Source of the DNA: Candidatus Latescibacterota bacterium
GTDB taxonomy: Bacteria; Latescibacterota; UBA2968; GCA-2709665
DNA: 64,000 nt
Direction: 5' to 3'
Assembly: GCA_965219455.1 (NCBI GenBank)
Contig: OZ244744.1
Location: forward strand, 768,001-832,000
In this document: positions 5,231 to 32,276 of the stretch, piece after piece
How positions within the stretch are numbered: the first letter of the stretch is position 1
How the letters are laid out: each line of letters begins with the position of its first letter
Notes under the pieces: generated by a model
The model's input: the letters and a program-made list of their open reading frames with translations, nothing else
Told to the model about the DNA's origin: nothing
Databases searched by the model: none
Made by a program: the position numbers and the translations under genes

Positions 5231-6088
5231 ATGAAACTCTCCTGCACGTCCGTAATGTTACCACGCTGGGACCTGGACCTTACATTCGACAAACTGGCTG
5301 AACATGGGTACGAAGGCATCGAACTTCGCTGCCGCTACAACCCTGGAGACGATGACGAGGATCCCTCATTCTGGGGCCGTCACCTTTCCGGCGTCAACCC
5401 GGACAACATTGTTCACAAGGCCGAAGCGATCCGGGCCGCCGAAAGACGTACCGGCATACAGGTAATCGCCCTGGCCCCCAACGTCACGTTGGAAGATACC
5501 GACGTCGTGGAAAAACTGTTCCGCGGCGCCGCCACGCTGAACCCGGACAATCCGCCCATGATCCGCATCGGCGCTCCCCGGCACGACCGCACGCAGCCCT
5601 ACTGGGCACAGTTCCTCAACGCACGAGCGGGTTTCGCGAGCCTCGTTGAAACCGCGCGGCAATACAACGTCAAAATTCTCTATGAAATTCACGTGGGCAC
5701 CGTCGCCGTCACCTGTTCGCGGGCCATCGAACTGCTGCGAGACCTGGACCCGGAACGTATCGGCGCGATATACGACATACCGAACATGCTGCGCGTGGGC
5801 CTGGAAGACACCAGGATGGGCATGGAACTGCTCGGCCCTTATCTCGCCCATTGCCACATCGGCAATGGGCGACCCGTCACCACCGGCCGCGATCGCCTGG
5901 GCGCTTTGGATTGGGAATGGGACTTCGCCGACCTTCGGGAAGGCATTGCCGACATCGGCCAGATCATCCGTGACTTCAAAGACGTCGGTTACGCCGGCTA
6001 TCTCTCACTGGAAGACTTCGGGCCCGGCGACGACGATACCAAACTTGGCGAACAGGGCGAGTACTTGAGGCGGTTGCTAGACGCTTGA
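5231..6088 (+). CDS. Sugar phosphate isomerase/epimerase family (xylose isomerase-like TIM barrel)
   Basis: GYEGIEL, YEIH, YDIPN, HCHI, YLSLE motifs. Confidence 0.88.
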   Translation: MKLSCTSVMLPRWDLDLTFDKLAEHGYEGIELRCRYNPGDDDEDPSFWGRHLSGVNPDNIVHKAEAIRAAERRTGIQVIALAPNVTLEDTDVVEKLFRGAATLNPDNPPMIRIGAPRHDRTQPYWAQFLNARAGFASLVETARQYNVKILYEIHVGTVAVTCSRAIELLRDLDPERIGAIYDIPNMLRVGLEDTRMGMELLGPYLAHCHIGNGRPVTTGRDRLGALDWEWDFADLREGIADIGQIIRDFKDVGYAGYLSLEDFGPGDDDTKLGEQGEYLRRLLDA

Positions 6089-6252
6089 TCTACACCAGAC
6101 AAGACTCCGGGGCCGCTCCCCAATCTTCGCGGATATCCCGTATGACCGCACGGGTCCTGGTCCCGTTGCGGATCGGAACGGATTGATCGCGGAATACCTG
6201 CAGTGGAATTCACGCAAGGTGTTAAGCCCATCTTGTAGAGGAGCACCTGCGA

Positions 6253-7743: not shown

Positions 7744-8760
7744 ATGTCCAGCCGGAATCTAGACGTCGTTATCACGGACTTCATCTCCAATCCCGATCTC
7801 GAAAGGGAAATCCTCTACGACGTCGCCGGTGTCCGGGTTCTGAATGCAACCACGGAAGCCGAACTCGCCGGCAGAATCGAAGACGCCGACGCCATCATTG
7901 CGTATCACTATATCGCGGTTTCCGGAAGCACCCTCAGACGCCTGCGGCGGTGTAAGGTCATCGCCCGGGGCGGCGTCGGATTCGACAATGTTGACGTCGC
8001 CTGCGCCCGAGAACTGGGCATTCCGGTTTGCAACGTGCCCGACTACGGAACCGAAGACGTGGCCGATGCGGCCGTCGGCATGGCGGTTTCAATGATCCGG
8101 GGCGTCGCGTTTCTCAACTCCCGTCTGCGCGCTTCCCTGGGACCCTGGTCCCCCTCCCAGGCGGCGCCTCTGCAACGCATCCGTGGCAGCGTATTCGGAA
8201 TCGTCGGCCTGGGACGGATCGGCACCGCCGCCGCACTGCGCGCGAAGGCGTTGGGCATGGATGTGTGTTTTTACGACCCCTACAAGCCGGACGGATACGC
8301 CAAGGCCCTGGGCATACGACGCGTGGAAACCCTGGAGGAAACCCTTGGCCAGGCCTTCACGCTCAGCATCCACTGCCCGCTTACCGACGAAACCCGCCAC
8401 ATAATCAACGCCGAAGCCATCGCTCTGATGCCAGAAGGCGCATACCTTGTGAATACCGCCCGCGGCGCCATCGTTGATACGTCGGCGATCCCGGACGCTG
8501 TTGCATCCGGCCGTCTGGCGGGCGCGGGAATCGACGTATTCGAATGGGAACAACCCGAAGAAGACGATCCGCTCATCGAGGCCTGGCGCAACCCCGGCCA
8601 CCCCGCGCACCATCGCGTGCTTATCACGCCCCATTCGGCCTTTTACTCGGAGCAGAGCCTGACGGATCTGCGCGTCAAGACCGCCGAAACCTGCAGACGG
8701 GCTCTGCTCGGTCAGCCGCTTAGAAATATCGTCAACCCCCCGACCATCACGCGACCATAG
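7744..8760 (+). CDS. D-isomer-specific 2-hydroxyacid dehydrogenase (C-terminal binding protein-like)
   Basis: GVGFDNVD, NVPDY, GLGRIG, HCPL, NTARG, TPHSAFYS motifs. Confidence 0.92.
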   Translation: MSSRNLDVVITDFISNPDLEREILYDVAGVRVLNATTEAELAGRIEDADAIIAYHYIAVSGSTLRRLRRCKVIARGGVGFDNVDVACARELGIPVCNVPDYGTEDVADAAVGMAVSMIRGVAFLNSRLRASLGPWSPSQAAPLQRIRGSVFGIVGLGRIGTAAALRAKALGMDVCFYDPYKPDGYAKALGIRRVETLEETLGQAFTLSIHCPLTDETRHIINAEAIALMPEGAYLVNTARGAIVDTSAIPDAVASGRLAGAGIDVFEWEQPEEDDPLIEAWRNPGHPAHHRVLITPHSAFYSEQSLTDLRVKTAETCRRALLGQPLRNIVNPPTITRP

Positions 8761-8822
8761 CCGTTTGGTCGTCGAAGGTCCAAGCGGCGAGGACGTGAAG
8801 GCGGCAGGGACCCAACGTCACC

Positions 8823-10343
8823 ATGCAATCTGATCAGAACATCCTCCTGCTCACGGACGGCCCGGGCGGCACCATAGGGGCCGATCTGGACATTCTTTAT
8901 CCGGACAGGGTCAAACGCCTGGACTTCGTGAATGACGGACACGACGCAGGCGTTCTCGGTCAGCATGAATTCGTAATCACCGTGGTGAATGACGGACGCA
9001 ACCTGCGGATGCTGGACTACAACGCCGTCACCGCATTCGCGGAATCCGGGGGGCAGGTCATCTCCTGCCTCTTCGAGTACGCGCGCAGCCGCGGCCTGCA
9101 TTTCAGCAAAACCCACGTGCACGACCGCATCCGTCCCGGGATGCGAATCGAGGTTGAAAGCGACGCGACCCGGGGCTATTCGGTCGGCGATACCGTCTGG
9201 TGGTACGGAACCGTCACCAGCGCCCCGGATCAGAGCTATGCCAACCAGATGTTCCAGCGTCAGATCCTGGGCATGGAAACCTCCCCGGACGTCGCCGTTC
9301 TGGGCATATCCAACCTGAACAGCGGCGCCGTCATGCTGGAAGAAAGCGTTGGCGACGGCCGCATTGTGGCCATGGACCTCGCGTCGCCGGTGCGCCCATG
9401 GTACAATTCCTGGGGGAGCACGAACAAGTATCTTTTCCTGGGCAACGTCGTCAACAACGCCGTTCGTTACGGCAGACACTATCCGGAACGCCTTTCCTAC
9501 GATGGATTTGTCAACCTGATGTTCGACACCGTGGAACGGTACCCCGACCTCCACCTGGAGGATGAAGGTCGCTCCAGCGACGGCAGGCCGATCTATTCCC
9601 TGAACGTCGGCGATGAATCCAACCCCACAATGTTTTTCGGCGCCGCCATACACGGCTGGGAATGGGAGAACTCCTACGGCCTTCTGCGCCTTGCGGAAGT
9701 TCTGTGTGAGAATCCGAACGTGGAAGGGTTGAACACCAACGAACTGCATTTCAAGATGCTGCCGGTGCAGAACCCGGGCGGATTCGATCGCTTCACCCGC
9801 CAGAACTCCCGGGGTGTCGACCTGAACCGCAATTTCGACTGCAACTGGGACGCCTTCCACTATGCGCAGGACGTGCGGACGCCCTGGGACTACAATTACA
9901 TGGGTACGGAACCCGCATCCGAGAGGGAGACCCGGATCATCCAGCGCCTCATCGACCGATGCCGGCCGCTCTGCGTGATCGACTTCCATACGGCCGACTA
10001 CATTATGATGCTGCCCCACAAGGGAGACGGGGAGCTGCTTGCAGCCATTCATGCGGACATCCGAGATCGCCTGAAAAACCGTTACCTGACTCAGAAGCCG
10101 TACGCCGGCGCGTACCAGCAGGTCAACATGGATCGCATCACCGATTTCCGTCCGCCCGAACCCTATTGCATCTCCTATGCGGCCGAACGCGGCACGCCCG
10201 CCGCCTTCCTCATCGAAATGTCCGGTAATCGCGACGACGTGCACGCCCTCGTCATGAACACGGACACGGTCGTCGAAGTCTGCCTCGCGGCCGTCAAGCA
10301 GTGCCTGCGAACCAGAATCTCGCGGCCCGGACACGAACGTTAA
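8823..10343 (+). CDS. M14 family zinc carboxypeptidase-domain protein with ~220-aa N-terminal extra domain
   Basis: HGWE (HxxE), RQN..GVDLNRNF, ASERET, DFH and a C-terminal IE motif. Confidence 0.85.
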   Translation: MQSDQNILLLTDGPGGTIGADLDILYPDRVKRLDFVNDGHDAGVLGQHEFVITVVNDGRNLRMLDYNAVTAFAESGGQVISCLFEYARSRGLHFSKTHVHDRIRPGMRIEVESDATRGYSVGDTVWWYGTVTSAPDQSYANQMFQRQILGMETSPDVAVLGISNLNSGAVMLEESVGDGRIVAMDLASPVRPWYNSWGSTNKYLFLGNVVNNAVRYGRHYPERLSYDGFVNLMFDTVERYPDLHLEDEGRSSDGRPIYSLNVGDESNPTMFFGAAIHGWEWENSYGLLRLAEVLCENPNVEGLNTNELHFKMLPVQNPGGFDRFTRQNSRGVDLNRNFDCNWDAFHYAQDVRTPWDYNYMGTEPASERETRIIQRLIDRCRPLCVIDFHTADYIMMLPHKGDGELLAAIHADIRDRLKNRYLTQKPYAGAYQQVNMDRITDFRPPEPYCISYAAERGTPAAFLIEMSGNRDDVHALVMNTDTVVEVCLAAVKQCLRTRISRPGHER

Positions 10344-10426
10344 CGGCCGATTGTAAACCCGGAACCATCAGCAGGCTCCTTTCCGTGCGGTAAAAAGGGG
10401 CCGAGACGTTTCAAAGGAGGCCCACC

Positions 10427-11431
10427 GTGAAAATCACCGACATCGACCTCTTCGAAGTCGAGATCCCGCCCATTCCGCCCATTGCCAGATACCATCCCAA
10501 AATCTATTCAATCACACTTTGTCGCGTCCATACCGACGGCGGCATCGAGGGCATCGGCGAATGCCAGGGCGAGCCGGCCCTATTCGCGGAAAGAGCCGCC
10601 GCGCTCACCGGACAGGACCCTCTCTCCCTGGATCCGTTTGCACAGCCCGACCCCTTCGCCTGCGCGCTCCTGGACATCGCCGGACAGGCCTACGGTATTC
10701 CTCTCTACCGCTTTTTCGGAGAGAAAGTCCGCAACCGCATCCCCGTCTCCTACTGGTCCTGCGCCATGCAACCCGAGGAGACGGCGGCCGAAGCCGAGGT
10801 CGGTGCAAGAATGGGCTTCACCAACCACAAACTCAAGGCGCGCCCCTGGAACATCGTGGAAACCGTCCGCCTCATTAAGGAAGCCGCGGGGCCCGAATAC
10901 ACCGTCGGCGTAGATCCCAATACCGCGTTTCAGCGCCCCGGCGTCGCCGCACGTCTTGCGGGAGAACTTGAACCGTTCGGTACGGTCGCCAACTTCGAAG
11001 ATCCCGTACTCAAGAATAACCTGGACTGGTATCGCCTCCTGCGCGAAAAAACCCATATTCCCATCGCGTTACACCTTGGCGCGCCGGGAGACGTGCTGAA
11101 AGCGCTGAAGGCCGAATGCATCGACTACGTCAACCTGGGGGGGCCGGCTCAGCAGGTGAAGAAAGCCGCCGTCCTCGCGGAGGCCGACGACGTCCCCTGC
11201 TGGGTGCAGATGGGCGGCCTGTGCCTGGGCGTCCTCGCCGCCTATTCGGTGCACGTCCAGGCAACCGTTCCCAATGCCACCCTGCCATGCGACGAACTAC
11301 CGTTCACCCGCGTGGCCGACGTTGTGAACGGCGCCCTGGTCGTAGAGGACGGACACTTCATTCTGCCCGAAACGCCCGGCCTCGGCGTGAAGCTGGATAT
11401 GGCGACGGTAAACAAGTACCGCACCGGCTAG
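10427..11431 (+). CDS. Mandelate racemase/muconate lactonizing enzyme family (enolase superfamily)
   Basis: N-terminal capping domain (TDGGIEGIGE, ALLDIAG), KLK, VDPN, FEDP, PGLGV. Confidence 0.9.
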   Translation: MKITDIDLFEVEIPPIPPIARYHPKIYSITLCRVHTDGGIEGIGECQGEPALFAERAAALTGQDPLSLDPFAQPDPFACALLDIAGQAYGIPLYRFFGEKVRNRIPVSYWSCAMQPEETAAEAEVGARMGFTNHKLKARPWNIVETVRLIKEAAGPEYTVGVDPNTAFQRPGVAARLAGELEPFGTVANFEDPVLKNNLDWYRLLREKTHIPIALHLGAPGDVLKALKAECIDYVNLGGPAQQVKKAAVLAEADDVPCWVQMGGLCLGVLAAYSVHVQATVPNATLPCDELPFTRVADVVNGALVVEDGHFILPETPGLGVKLDMATVNKYRTG

Positions 11432-29079: not shown

Positions 29080-29121
29080 ACGGAACATCCGGTAAAGTTG
29101 ATTCGTATTGCGGAGGATTAT

Positions 29122-29586
29122 ATGGACAGTTGTAAACAGGCTTGTGCGCTCGCCATCGCCGTCGCCACACTTTTCGTCTCGGCGGTACCGTCGCAGGCGC
29201 AGGAGAAAACGAAGGACTTCCTCTACTCCAAGAAACTCTACGGAGCGCTGTCACTCGGGGCAAGCATCTGGTTCTTCAAGGAGGCGCACGACGCCAGGAA
29301 GGACGCGAACAACGCATACGAGAGGTACAGAACCACAACATCCTCCCAGACGGCTGGAGACCTTTACAACGAAAGCAAATCCGGCGACACCAAAGCGCTC
29401 GTCCTGATTGGCCTGGGTGCAGGTACCCTGGCGTACTCGGTCCATCTTTTTCTTTCGGATGAAGAAGAGGACCTGCCGCCCCCCGAAAAGAGAAACAACA
29501 TGGTCGAAATGAGAGGCATAGGCCTGGCCGTGAATGGAGACCTCAACGGCAGGGGCGTCCGATTGAACCTCAACAAAGCATTTTAG
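29122..29586 (+). CDS. Hypothetical exported/membrane protein
   Basis: GGAGG RBS, signal peptide (AxA), two hydrophobic segments, and a C-terminal beta-strand ending in F. Confidence 0.75.
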   Translation: MDSCKQACALAIAVATLFVSAVPSQAQEKTKDFLYSKKLYGALSLGASIWFFKEAHDARKDANNAYERYRTTTSSQTAGDLYNESKSGDTKALVLIGLGAGTLAYSVHLFLSDEEEDLPPPEKRNNMVEMRGIGLAVNGDLNGRGVRLNLNKAF

Positions 29587-29808
29587 CAACGACCTCCGCT
29601 CTCACGCGCCCCCTTTCGAGACCTCCTTGTAGCGGAAAAGTGGGCCGCCGGACGGGGCCGCAGCAGATACCATGCGCAAGTCCTCTACTGTGAATAGCCG
29701 CTGCGATTCCTATCTCCCGTCCTCGCGCGATCTCGCTCCGCGTAGTCTAGTCCATCGTTCCAAGCATAAGCCCACCCGCCGAACGATCGCCGCTTTGAAT
29801 GGAACGGT

Positions 29809-30096
29809 ATGTTCGATTGGGATCCAGCCAAGGCAGCGAGCAATTTACGGAAGCACACGGTCAGCTTCGAACTCGCCGCCACGGTCTTCCGGGATCCGCT
29901 CTCGCAGTCAATTCCCGACGAGGATCACAGTGAGTTCGAGGAGCGCTGGATAACCATGGGTTGCGCTCAGGACGGTCGGCTGGTGGTGGTGTGTCATACT
30001 GATGCCGAGTCAGGCGACCGCGAGACATTGGTGCGGCTCATCTCGGCGCGCGTCGCCACCCCTAACGAACGTCGTCAATACGAGTCTGGCGAATGA
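29809..30096 (+). CDS. brnT: BrnT family type II toxin (ribonuclease)
   Basis: FDWDPAKAASNLRKH.VSF..A..VF.DP, HS..EERW..G, LVVVCHT, RLISAR.AT..ERRQY. Confidence 0.92.
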   Translation: MFDWDPAKAASNLRKHTVSFELAATVFRDPLSQSIPDEDHSEFEERWITMGCAQDGRLVVVCHTDAESGDRETLVRLISARVATPNERRQYESGE

Positions 30097-32014
30097 AGAC
30101 AGAATACGACTTTTCGAAAGGCGAGCGCGGTAGATTTTTCCGCGAGAATGCCAAGCTGAGCTTTTCCGCTTTCGACGAGAAACCGAATTGGATCGGCCTC
30201 ACAGGGCAGATCGCTAAGTTCATTGTCGAGGAGGCGGAAAGAACTCTCGAATCGTACCGCGCGCAGCCACGTCTAGTAACCGAGCATGCCAACCTCGAAC
30301 ACGATACCGCTCATGGTGGATATGCCCATCGGCAATTGTTCGAACTCGTTCAGAACAGCGCGGACGCCTTGCTCGACGCGCCAAAAGGCAGGAGCATCCT
30401 GATCCGCCTGACGAAACGCTTCCTCTACTGTGCCGACGATGGAAAATCTATCGACGAGGACGGAATCGTGGGTCTAATGTTCGACCGCATGTCGAGCAAA
30501 CGGAACACCCCCGCGATCGGAAGGTTCGGTAAGGGTTTCAAATCGGTCTTGAGAGTAACGGATGCTCCCGAGTTCTACAGCCGGTCTGGTTCGTTCTTGT
30601 TCAACAAAACGCGCTCGGCGAAACGAATAGCGGACGTCGCGCAAGCCGAAGGATACCCTGTGCTGCGTTTGCCCGAACCGATCGATCCCTACAATGAGAG
30701 TGATACCGACGCGGAAATGCAGGAACTGATGAGTTGGGCGACGAACATCGTCCGCCTGCCGCTAGAGCCCGGTGTGCATGACGACCTCGCCCAACAGATC
30801 AGAGACTTTCCGCCCGAATTTTTGCTTTTCGTCGATCATGTCCGTTATCTGACCCTTGAGGATGGGGAAGTTTCCCGGAGCTTCATCTTGCAGGATCGGC
30901 AGGGGGAGTTTCATCTCGATACCGGCGAAGGGACTTCGCGTTGGCGGCTTTTCAAAACAACCCATGCGCTTTCTTCCGAAGCACGGAGCGACTGGGGCTT
31001 GGACGAAGGCAGCGGCAACGTGCCGATCTCGTGGGCGGCACCGCTGGATCGATTGGATCGCCCCGGACATTTCTGGGCGTTCTTCCCGACCAAGACCGCA
31101 AGCCTCCTTGCCGGTATCCTGAATGCGCCATGGAAAACCAATGAAGATCGTCAAGATCTGCTGCCTGGACCGTATAACGACGAACTGATCGAAATGGCGG
31201 CACGGCTGATAGCCGACGAATTGCCAAGACTCGCGACTCAGTTAGACCCTGCTTGCCATTTGGACGCACTGCCTCGCAGACAAGAGTCTGGTGACTCGGA
31301 GCAGAGTGTTCTGCTTCGCAACCGTTTGTTTGCCCATCTGCGCAAACGAGAAATCGTACCCGATCAGAAAGGAAAGTTGCGCACCTAGGGGGAAATCTTA
31401 TATCCCCCCAGGAAATTGACCGACGCCTCGGACAAGGCGCCATTTATGCGCTGGTCAGCGTATCCGGGGCGACCATCGAATTGGCTGCACCATGAAGCCC
31501 TCACGCGCAACGGTCTCGCTAGCATCGACCGGTTGTTTCCCTCGCGTTGGCAGGGAGACTCAGCGACCGCACCCAGGGCCACAATCGCCGAATGGTTAAG
31601 TTCGCTCGTGAGAGACCGGAAGGCGGACGAAGCTGTCCAAGCTTCAATGGCAGCTATCCAGACGGCCGCGAACATTCCACCTGATATAAGGTCTCACGAA
31701 GTACTTGGCGACATCGTCCTGACGGCAAGCGGCCATTGGCGATCCCCCGACCCGGAACAGCTCTTTCTGCCTCACGAGTCGGAAAATGGCCACGAGTCCG
31801 TGAAACCGACGTTGTGTGTCCACCCGAAACTGGCGTCGGACCATAATACGCTCGCAGGGCTTAGGAAATTGGGCCTTAGACCGCCGTCCCCGGAAAGGAG
31901 ATTCCGCTGATCGGCGGCGGCGACCGCTGCCTGATCCTCAACGTTCGAGACAACATCGAGAACTTCGACCGGAAGCTTGCCTTCACCGAGTTGGATTGGC
32001 TTTGGGCCTTATAG
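30093..32014 (+). pseudogene. BrnA-like antitoxin N-terminus fused to a sacsin-like GHKL ATPase (probable SF2 helicase fusion), disrupted
   Basis: Starts MKTEYDFSKGERGRFF, then GHKL motifs ELVQNSADA, ADDG, IGRFGKGFKSV. In-frame TAG at 31386-31388; the same frame continues to 31910. A 37-aa helicase-like C-terminus (GGGDRCLILNVRDNIENF...LDWLWAL) follows in another frame at 31901-32014. The 431-aa ORF 30093-31388 could still be expressed. Confidence 0.75.
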
Positions 32015-32276
32015 ACACAATCTTGAGTCCCCTCCGAAAAGGGCGGCTATGAAGGTTTCGTGTTATCCCTTTACTGTCCGAGAACCGTTGGAATTTTAGA
32101 CATGACGTTTGAAAAATAGCCAAATGGGCGCCTATGGACACACGTGCTGTTAGCCCTAAGATAACCGAGTATTGATGTTGCTGAGCAAATTGGCGTTCTT
32201 GACCTATGGTGTGGTTGATTGTTGTATCAGTGTTGCGTGTTTTGGCCGCGAATTTCCTGCCGCGATCCATGCAATC

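Follow-up and report, generated by a model that had tools for sequence, protein, structure and literature searches.

This study analyzed a two-gene locus at positions 29809-32014 of a 64,000-nucleotide stretch of DNA, referred to here as the window, from a Candidatus Latescibacterota bacterium (assembly GCA_965219455.1, contig OZ244744.1). The locus comprises brnT, which encodes a predicted RNase toxin, and the broken gene of a GHKL ATPase, the product of which begins with a short peptide of the kind carried by the antitoxins of BrnT. The window locus is a remnant of a two-gene module, and its relatives in other genomes were compared with respect to the peptide, the toxin gene, and the large ATPase/helicase encoded by the intact module.

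The toxin gene and the broken ATPase gene of the window

The brnT gene (29809-30096, + strand) is intact and has 95 codons, and its product is assigned to the RelE/ParE superfamily of RNase toxins. The product matches PF04365 (BrnT_toxin) over profile positions 1-77 of 77 (E=1.6e-25; 89.7 bits against a cut-off of 34.5), contains all 8 columns that are invariant in 43 homologs, and has chain 7vd7_A, labeled "toxin", as its closest solved structure (E=2e-14). It is clearly a BrnT family toxin by these matches, with predicted ribonuclease activity and toxicity. The ratio of nonsynonymous to synonymous substitution rates (dN/dS) of the gene was 0.19 in the comparison with the syntenic relative L001. 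The stop codon of brnT and the start codon of the downstream gene overlap in an ATGA (30093-30096, + strand; read from CGAATGAAGAC), and the toxin gene and its partner adjoin each other in one orientation with their stop and start coupled, which is a trait of type II toxin-antitoxin systems. The first-pass annotation of the window had reported this overlap and had noted that no separate BrnA lies nearby. Both observations hold: PF14384 (BrnA_antitoxin) had no match across the whole 5.84-Mb source genome, and there is no space for a separate antitoxin gene between brnT and the ATPase gene. A promoter scan returned one sigma-70-like site, the same number as in shuffled sequences, and none was located ahead of brnT.

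The downstream frame opens with MKTEYDFSKGERGRFFRENAKL and remains open for 431 codons up to a TAG (30093-31388, + strand), as identified in the list of open reading frames and classified with the PADLOC TmtA profile and Foldseek. Residues 80-162 (30330-30578, + strand) contain the GHKL ATP-binding motifs ELVQNSADA, DDG, and GRFGKGFKS and match NF047352, "sacsin N-terminal ATP-binding-like" (E=1.4e-15; 57.4 bits, cut-off 50). The earlier identification of a sacsin-type GHKL ATPase following the peptide, made from the motifs ELVQNSADA, ADDG, and IGRFGKGFKSV, was therefore correct, with NF047352 above its cut-off. The residues E84, N88, D91, D115, G117, G143, and G146 are invariant in 34 homologs, and the TmtA profile PDLC03964 matches residues 38-448 (E=4.5e-51). 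The AlphaFold model of the 605-residue read-through product (mean pLDDT, 79.4) matched Hsp90/TRAP1, sacsin SR1, SMCHD1, MORC2, and GyrB in Foldseek, with a TM-score of 0.46 on the target for sacsin SR1 (5v44_C).

The full-length homologs indicate what the intact protein comprises. Among the 120 listed of 1252 long clusters, the proteins measure 1071-1561 amino acids, mostly approximately 1500, and Pfam places ResIII, DEAD, and Helicase_C at approximately residues 1085-1470, with the GHKL domain at the N-terminus. The layout is a peptide of approximately 25 residues, a Tiamat/sacsin-like GHKL ATPase, a long middle region, and a C-terminal superfamily 2 (SF2) helicase. The accessible passages of a recent preprint describe Tiamat as an ATPase/DNase and describe bacterial "Tiamat-like" proteins in which an SF2 helicase replaces the nuclease as Type III-A (bioRxiv 10.64898/2026.09.30.754977, October 2026). 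As far as those passages allow the comparison, the window family shares with Tiamat (TmtA) the N-terminal approximately 420 residues, which have a sacsin/Hsp90-like GHKL fold, and shares with Type III-A the SF2 helicase end. Tiamat proper has a PD-(D/E)xK nuclease, whereas the window family does not: no such nuclease (DUF3883) was found at the C-terminus of the full-length homologs, which end in ResIII/DEAD/Helicase_C instead. DUF3684 is absent from the Pfam listing (E<=0.01) of three full-length homologs, and the TmtA matches stop at approximately profile position 536 of 1538-1782.

The window copy of this gene carries two lesions. An in-frame TAG occupies codon 432 (31386-31388, + strand), for which L001 has ATG and the protein cluster P0002 has Ile. 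Past the TAG, codons 433-605 continue in the same frame (31389-31910, + strand; gap-free in the alignment with a full-length homolog) to a TGA at 31908-31910 that was created by a deletion, giving 605 codons in all. A full-length homolog aligns with residues 1-605 without gaps in frame 1 (78% identity), and residues 1470-1504 of P0122 match 31904-32008 in frame 3 (83% identity, tblastn); thus, the middle region and the whole helicase, approximately 864 codons, have been deleted. The junction of this internal deletion of approximately 2.6 kb lies at 31899-31925, as determined by blastn against L001, of which positions 7807-10432 are missing, and by a three-way junction alignment. The last 36 codons and the original stop codon (PLIGGGDRCLILNVRDNIENFDRKLAFTELDWLWAL and stop; 31904-32014, + strand; tblastn and translation) survive out of frame, and position 32014, where the earlier annotation ended the locus, is that original stop codon.

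Both the TAG and the junction are reproduced with 0 differences in short-read contigs from two studies (X1 record 6, 30873-32100; X4 record 25, 31064-32100) and are therefore not assembly errors. Cluster P0002, which is 96% identical to the window product, likewise ends at residue 605 but carries Ile at position 432, indicating that the deletion is older than the nonsense change. No second copy of the GHKL gene was found in the source genome. With the helicase and the middle region lost and a stop at codon 432, the window copy cannot be a working sensor-gated system. Contigs from sponge RNA libraries match parts of the broken gene, and one that matches the remnant exactly (X14 record 12) spans the deletion junction, whereas none covers brnT with 0 differences; carry-over of DNA is possible, and the contigs do not show transcription or strand.

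The closest genome locus, L001, belongs to a Candidatus Latescibacterota metagenome-assembled genome, is syntenic with the window on both sides, and has an open 1505-codon gene. In 100-base steps, positions 29800-31500 of the window are 94-100% identical to L001 (5708-7410), compared with 67-86% in the flanks; this block runs from the start of brnT to approximately codon 470 of the GHKL gene. The synonymous divergence (dS) from L001 was 0.027 for codons 1-431 and 0.42 for codons 433-600, and codons 1-431 differ in only 7 residues (dN/dS, 0.26). The identity block and the contrast in dS indicate that brnT and the N-terminal module were recently exchanged as one block between two species.

The N-terminal peptide and its association with toxin genes

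The first 25 residues of the downstream protein (MKTEYDFSKGERGRFFRENAKLSFS; 30093-30167, + strand) agree with the N-terminus of short antitoxins. The consensus of 57 helicase N-termini (MKxEYDFSKGERGRFxRxxAxLxLP) and that of 74 short antitoxins (MKREYDFSKAERGKFYRxxAxLxLP, then IYLD) match residue for residue as far as the LP ahead of the ribbon strand. The 74 antitoxin loci came from a metagenome scan made for another purpose, and their alignment was limited to residues 1-25 to 1-34. Where whole, these antitoxins are mostly approximately 66 amino acids long (48-99) and read MKREYDFSKAERGKFYR..A.L.LP, followed by IYLD and a helical part with weak ribbon-helix-helix or CopG_antitoxin matches below the cut-off. 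Of the 68 assessable loci, 55 had a BrnT profile match within the 450 bases preceding the antitoxin gene and 13 had none; six more loci lay at a contig edge. When brnT genes of the window's phylum were sampled instead, the N-terminal region contained [EH]YD[FL] in 20 of the 29 downstream open reading frames, with C-terminal domains of several kinds following; the others were degenerate (2) or of other types (7).

Within the peptide, Y5, F7, and G13 are invariant in 43 sequences, the identity of which to the window falls to 35% over the first 60 residues, and E4, D6, S8, R12, and F15 are conserved in at least 90%. No ribbon-helix-helix domain and no PF14384 was matched in the window protein at E<=0.1, and the GHKL domain follows residue 25 or thereabouts. 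Pfam and NCBIfam searches of the N-terminal 60 residues likewise returned no antitoxin family for the BrnT-type peptide. In the AlphaFold model, residues 1-27 had a pLDDT below 50 and no secondary structure, as expected of a segment that folds on binding. A complex prediction of BrnT with residues 1-60, run twice and without controls, scored 0.30 each time, where the mark is 0.32; by the rule of the tool, such a score speaks neither way on binding.

Judged by sequence, the peptide is the N-terminal segment that precedes the ribbon-helix-helix part in the small antitoxins normally following brnT. This segment would be the toxin-facing part by elimination, because in proteins of approximately 66 residues it is the sole part outside the ribbon-helix-helix, and the peptide is predicted to be the element that neutralizes BrnT. 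The first-pass annotation had described the gene as starting with a BrnA-type peptide, which the agreement with the 74 short antitoxins bears out, and had placed it where the ribbon-helix-helix part would normally follow, a position that the GHKL domain indeed takes.

The source genome contains four more brnT loci (L081, L083, L084, and L085/L086), of which one is frameshifted. The partners found with them fall into four kinds: one of the EYDFS type with a long C-terminal part, one of the ribbon-helix-helix type, one that is DUF4415-like, and one of the "EYRRGDL...NLVLLEPDIA" type.

We analyzed the co-occurrence of the peptide and brnT in 80 genome loci kept from 557 relatives, in which brnT was called by tblastn and with a profile built from those loci. 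The peptide was present in 57 loci, with a full brnT upstream in 42, a partial or broken one in 11, and none in 3; the remaining locus, at a contig end, was not assessable. None of the 23 loci without the peptide had brnT upstream, so that brnT without the peptide was found in 0 of the 80 loci. The four-base overlap was retained in 39 of the 42 loci with a full brnT, and brnT was degraded or missing in 14 peptide-bearing loci. A toxin that never stands alone and a peptide that sometimes outlives it constitute the asymmetry expected of a toxin and its neutralizer in a type II system. Among the 120 listed long homologs, 108 had [EKQ][YF][DN]F[SAL] at position 4, 7 had a one-residue variant, and 5 had a later start and no peptide. 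The junction might have been peculiar to the source genome, as the first-pass annotation had considered; it is not, being found in 57 of the 80 loci and in more than 100 full-length homologs. The annotation had also suggested checking whether intact homologs keep the EYDFSK peptide and an upstream brnT; brnT or its remnant stands directly upstream in 53 of the 57 peptide-bearing loci. No third gene family accompanied the pair in more than 8 of the 80 loci, indicating that only the two genes travel together.

The distribution of the family is uneven. Among 15 genomes of the window's genus, the gene was full-length in 3 and truncated in 2, and 10 had no match with this query. The tree of the family mixes phyla, with Gemmatimonadota inside Latescibacterota and Binatota beside Acidobacteriota. 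Sponge-associated lineages are named in many record titles of the relatives, and sponge metagenome is the label of the RNA runs in which parts of the window occur. Two helicase loci without the peptide have other toxin-like open reading frames just upstream, which resemble by eye PIN/VapC-like (L043, 5404-5784) and RES-domain-like (L054, 5345-5827) proteins.

Damaged copies are common in the family. The protein clusters comprised 1252 long ones, 338 of 332-1059 amino acids, and 175 of less than 332 amino acids, many with out-of-frame tails. Several independent internal deletions (L053, L059, L073, L077, and L078) resemble that of the window in sparing both the 5' part and the 3' extremity, and other copies kept the 5' part only. 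A full brnT was present in 8 of the 12 assessable truncated loci with the peptide, a 13th (L016) lying at a contig end. The truncation ends (protein clusters P0242-P0361 and P0002-P0121) group near residues 272-293, 417-447, and 600-612, and the first group contains 35 clusters with a median mutual identity of 60%. The possibility that truncations fall at domain boundaries, such that only stable fragments would hold the toxin, was rejected: the ends at 417-447 fit, as they follow the helix 403-416, but those at 272-293 lie inside the strand 281-292. A conserved stop near W284 that is read through was also considered and rejected on the evidence of one locus; L122 (2104-2952) has TGG changed to TAG at the invariant Trp-284 with frameshifts following, and it is therefore a pseudogene. 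In the 661-residue cluster P0051, the first approximately 30 residues of BrnT are fused straight to MKREYDF and the GHKL domain, which looks like a deletion within brnT.

Similar arrangements were found with another toxin and with another helicase. Four homologs from Dehalococcoidia (Chloroflexota; L073, L074, L075, and L080) have a different N-terminal add-on at the same joint, ahead of W.GPDG. Scans of L073, L074, and L080 matched the add-on to approximately positions 2-54 of the 89-position HigA-type antidote family TIGR02684/PF21716 (E=6e-8 to 3e-10), and L075 shows the same motif by pattern only. A TIGR02683 toxin of the RelE/ParE type is located upstream in all four loci, full in three and partial in one (E=8.6e-38, 2.5e-36); the helicase is also truncated in the locus with the partial toxin. 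The add-on and toxin region lies at about 5520-6150 in each of these loci.

The second arrangement was identified in genome G018, from another genus of the window's order, in which brnT is followed by the defense helicase-nuclease PbeA (L119, 3989-6563, - strand). The PADLOC PbeA match (E=6e-197) begins at residue 68, and the N-terminal extension of approximately 67 residues carries ELRPEYDLR; a PbeC/DndD-like ATPase gene and a ParB-like gene follow. Three of the seven PbeA homologs in the phylum sample have the ELRPEYDLR extension, with brnT full in one, a remnant in one, and absent in one, and the remaining four have neither the extension nor brnT; here too, the toxin gene does not occur without the extension, which can outlive it.

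Proposed working of the module and alternative explanations

From these comparisons, we regard it as somewhat probable that the toxin is docked on the defense ATPase/helicase through the tethered antitoxin peptide. In intact relatives, the BrnT RNase would be held silent on the N-terminus of the enzyme, directly ahead of the GHKL domain. Activation of the enzyme would make the peptide let go, with ATP-driven N-terminal dimerization as a possible trigger; alternatively, disabling or degradation of the enzyme by a phage would bring about the release. Once free, the RNase would shut down translation in an abortive or back-up response. ATP binding rearranges the N-terminal region in Hsp90, GyrB, and MutL, and because the peptide is located just ahead of the GHKL domain, such a rearrangement could be the switch. 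An anti-phage role is predicted from the resemblance to the TmtA and PbeA families and from the patchy distribution.

The first-pass annotation had proposed a toxin-neutralizing peptide tethered to a large ATPase/helicase sensor. The conserved fusion and the parallel grafts, on the same site and on PbeA, speak for the tethered antitoxin element of this proposal as applied to the family, but the window copy is not a working sensor. Only a putative toxin-antitoxin relation can remain in the window, between BrnT and the 431-residue N-terminal fragment. Such a surviving relation would account for the intact state of brnT and the 5' part beside the decay of everything else.

Several observations weigh against the docked-toxin reading. 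The helicase can do without the toxin, which is absent from 23 of the 80 family members, and an intact helicase gene stands beside a degraded or missing brnT in nine loci. The association is also clustered on the tree (FastTree, ATPase region), on which the peptide label needs only three changes among 80 rows; one large clade contains 51 peptide-bearing rows and one without the peptide, and a separate Acidobacteriota clade contains 6 peptide-bearing rows. Furthermore, the three extended PbeA cases all belong to one genus. This clustering, together with the single genus of the PbeA cases, implies few independent events: approximately two for BrnT on the GHKL-helicase family, one for PbeA, and one for the RelE type. 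A pair that persists without the helicase is also expected of a plain addiction module. Finally, binding and neutralization of BrnT by the peptide, phage sensing, and release are all predicted steps.

A broader and more tentative proposition, to which we give limited credence, is that antitoxin-derived N-terminal peptides serve as a general plug. They would wire type II toxins (BrnT and RelE/ParE) onto large defense NTPases (Tiamat-like GHKL helicases and PbeA) as releasable effectors, with the ATP-driven N-terminal rearrangement of the GHKL domain as the switch.

The main rival explanation, which we consider unlikely yet serious, is an ordinary toxin-antitoxin system, the antitoxin of which is embedded in the 5' end of a useful defense gene and which would stabilize the locus or propagate itself; the helicase would act without sensing or release. 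The data do not separate this explanation from the docked-toxin reading. In truncated copies, brnT and the 5' part survive (8 of the 12 assessable, plus the window), and 81 of the 120 listed clusters below 332 amino acids (175 found) begin with the peptide. The recent swap of brnT and codons 1 to approximately 470 between two species resembles the behavior of a selfish element, and the helicase functions toxin-free in 23 of the 80 loci. Nevertheless, internal deletions are common and the helicase is not protected, which indicates a weak benefit to the defense gene. Two unrelated toxin families and two unrelated helicases converge on N-terminal docking, which goes beyond one selfish insertion, and the DNA-binding half, the basis of antitoxin autoregulation, was discarded each time. 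A related alternative in the first-pass annotation, that the toxin enforces retention of the helicase gene, fits the remnants, but only the 5' part of the gene is protected.

It is improbable that BrnT is a constitutive nuclease subunit, active in trans in place of the PD-(D/E)xK nuclease of Tiamat, with the peptide docking the RNase at helicase-unwound substrates. This explanation draws on the replacement of Tiamat's C-terminal nuclease by a helicase in the full-length homologs. According to the accessible passages of the respective sources, nuclease-less Tiamat-like proteins often have an effector from a neighboring gene (bioRxiv 10.64898/2026.09.30.754977), and BrnT-like genes are located directly upstream of RtcR-associated CoCoNuT systems (PMC11090510). 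However, the docking peptide is the same as that used by small antitoxins with BrnT, which points to inhibition. Moreover, helicase-less remnants keep an intact brnT and the cells live, suggesting that the N-terminal fragment keeps the RNase harmless.

Even less credible is an inert relic, in which both window genes are dead, brnT is unexpressed or non-toxic, and the 431-codon frame is a pseudogene that has yet to decay. The TAG at codon 432, the 2.6-kb deletion, and the lack of a sigma-70-like promoter ahead of brnT agree with this explanation, as does the finding that no 0-difference contig from the sponge RNA libraries lies over brnT, though parts of the broken gene are covered. By contrast, the full profile coverage of brnT, the presence of all invariant residues, and its dN/dS of 0.19 disagree with it, and codons 1-431 have accumulated only 7 residue differences from L001 at a dN/dS of 0.26. 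RNA-library contigs also match the remnant exactly, one of them over the deletion junction, with the reservation that DNA carry-over is possible. A chance fusion, in which the peptide is the leftover of a deletion that joined brnA to the helicase gene and is kept by linkage only, is very improbable and close to refuted, because despite the visible damage to the window copy, Y5, F7, and G13 are invariant in 43 sequences sharing as little as 35% identity with the window, the junction occurs in more than 100 full-length homologs, and it recurs with other partners.

Relation to known systems

The BrnT/BrnA pair of Brucella abortus was reportedly described as a type II toxin-antitoxin system by Heaton et al. 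in 2012. As in that pair, the toxin gene comes first at the window locus and overlaps its partner, the N-terminus of which is of the BrnT-linked antitoxin type. In contrast to BrnA, which has a C-terminal ribbon-helix-helix domain according to the accessible part of a toxin survey (PMC11980606), the window-type partner keeps only approximately 25 antitoxin residues, fused to an enzyme of approximately 1500 residues, and has no ribbon-helix-helix domain. Such a partner is predicted to be unable to autoregulate because it lacks this DNA-binding domain.

Latent toxic nucleases silenced by a defense ATPase are known: PrrC is held by the EcoprrI restriction enzyme, and AriB is held by AriA in PARIS. 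The window-type module is proposed to follow this logic, in that a harmful nuclease bound to a large defense enzyme is freed when a phage acts on the enzyme. Those cases involve folded-protein contacts and have no sequence relation to the window module, whereas here the peptide is borrowed from a type II antitoxin. CapRel-type fused defense proteins are a further case of fused toxin-antitoxin parts. Fused toxin-antitoxin genes have toxin and antitoxin parts rewired by fusion, as in the present family; here, however, the toxin remains separate, and only the toxin-side antitoxin peptide is fused, to an enzyme. In the passages available, the RelE/ParE toxin survey (mBio 2025) includes BrnT-BrnA fusions and reports that some such fused systems act in phage defense (PMC11980606), and the words helicase, GHKL, and sacsin had 0 occurrences in its main text as far as it was accessible.

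BrnT-like genes have also been reported, in the accessible sections of the article, with the same orientation and right upstream of CoCoNuT type IV restriction systems that are RtcR-associated (eLife 2024, PMC11090510). The upstream position of the BrnT-like RNase gene is as found here, but the defense proteins are different, and in those sections no antitoxin peptide is described on the downstream protein. The accessible main text of the Tiamat preprint (10.64898/2026.09.30.754977) had 0 occurrences of BrnT and one of "antitoxin", in relation to PIN domains. Judged by titles and passages, no publication describing an antitoxin peptide on a defense helicase was found. Within the literature searched, to the extent that it was accessible, the arrangement combines the known logic of effectors held by defense ATPases and of reused toxin-antitoxin parts in an undescribed form.

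The widespread intact arrangement in other bacteria suggests that toxins can be plugged into defense motors. It touches on the questions of how toxin-antitoxin modules join phage defense and how large defense ATPases signal to an effector. A well-known RNase toxin and an ATPase/helicase of 1500 residues are linked solely through the 25-residue peptide, which makes this a simple case that is genetically testable. Natural controls are available in the members without the peptide and toxin, the members with another toxin and antidote at the same site, and PbeA with the same plug. If the peptide does hold the toxin, the module would show how effectors swap onto defense motors, and this would explain why so many gene remnants survive. 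If the general-plug proposition were true, toxin-antitoxin modules and motor-type defense systems would be two ends of one modular continuum.

Two neighboring open reading frames were also observed. At L098, which neighbors the PbeA locus L119, a 298-residue frame resembles PAPS reductase by eye. In the window, a 162-codon frame just 5' of brnT (29098-29586) had no Pfam or NCBIfam match and is 73-85% identical to the syntenic stretch of L001.

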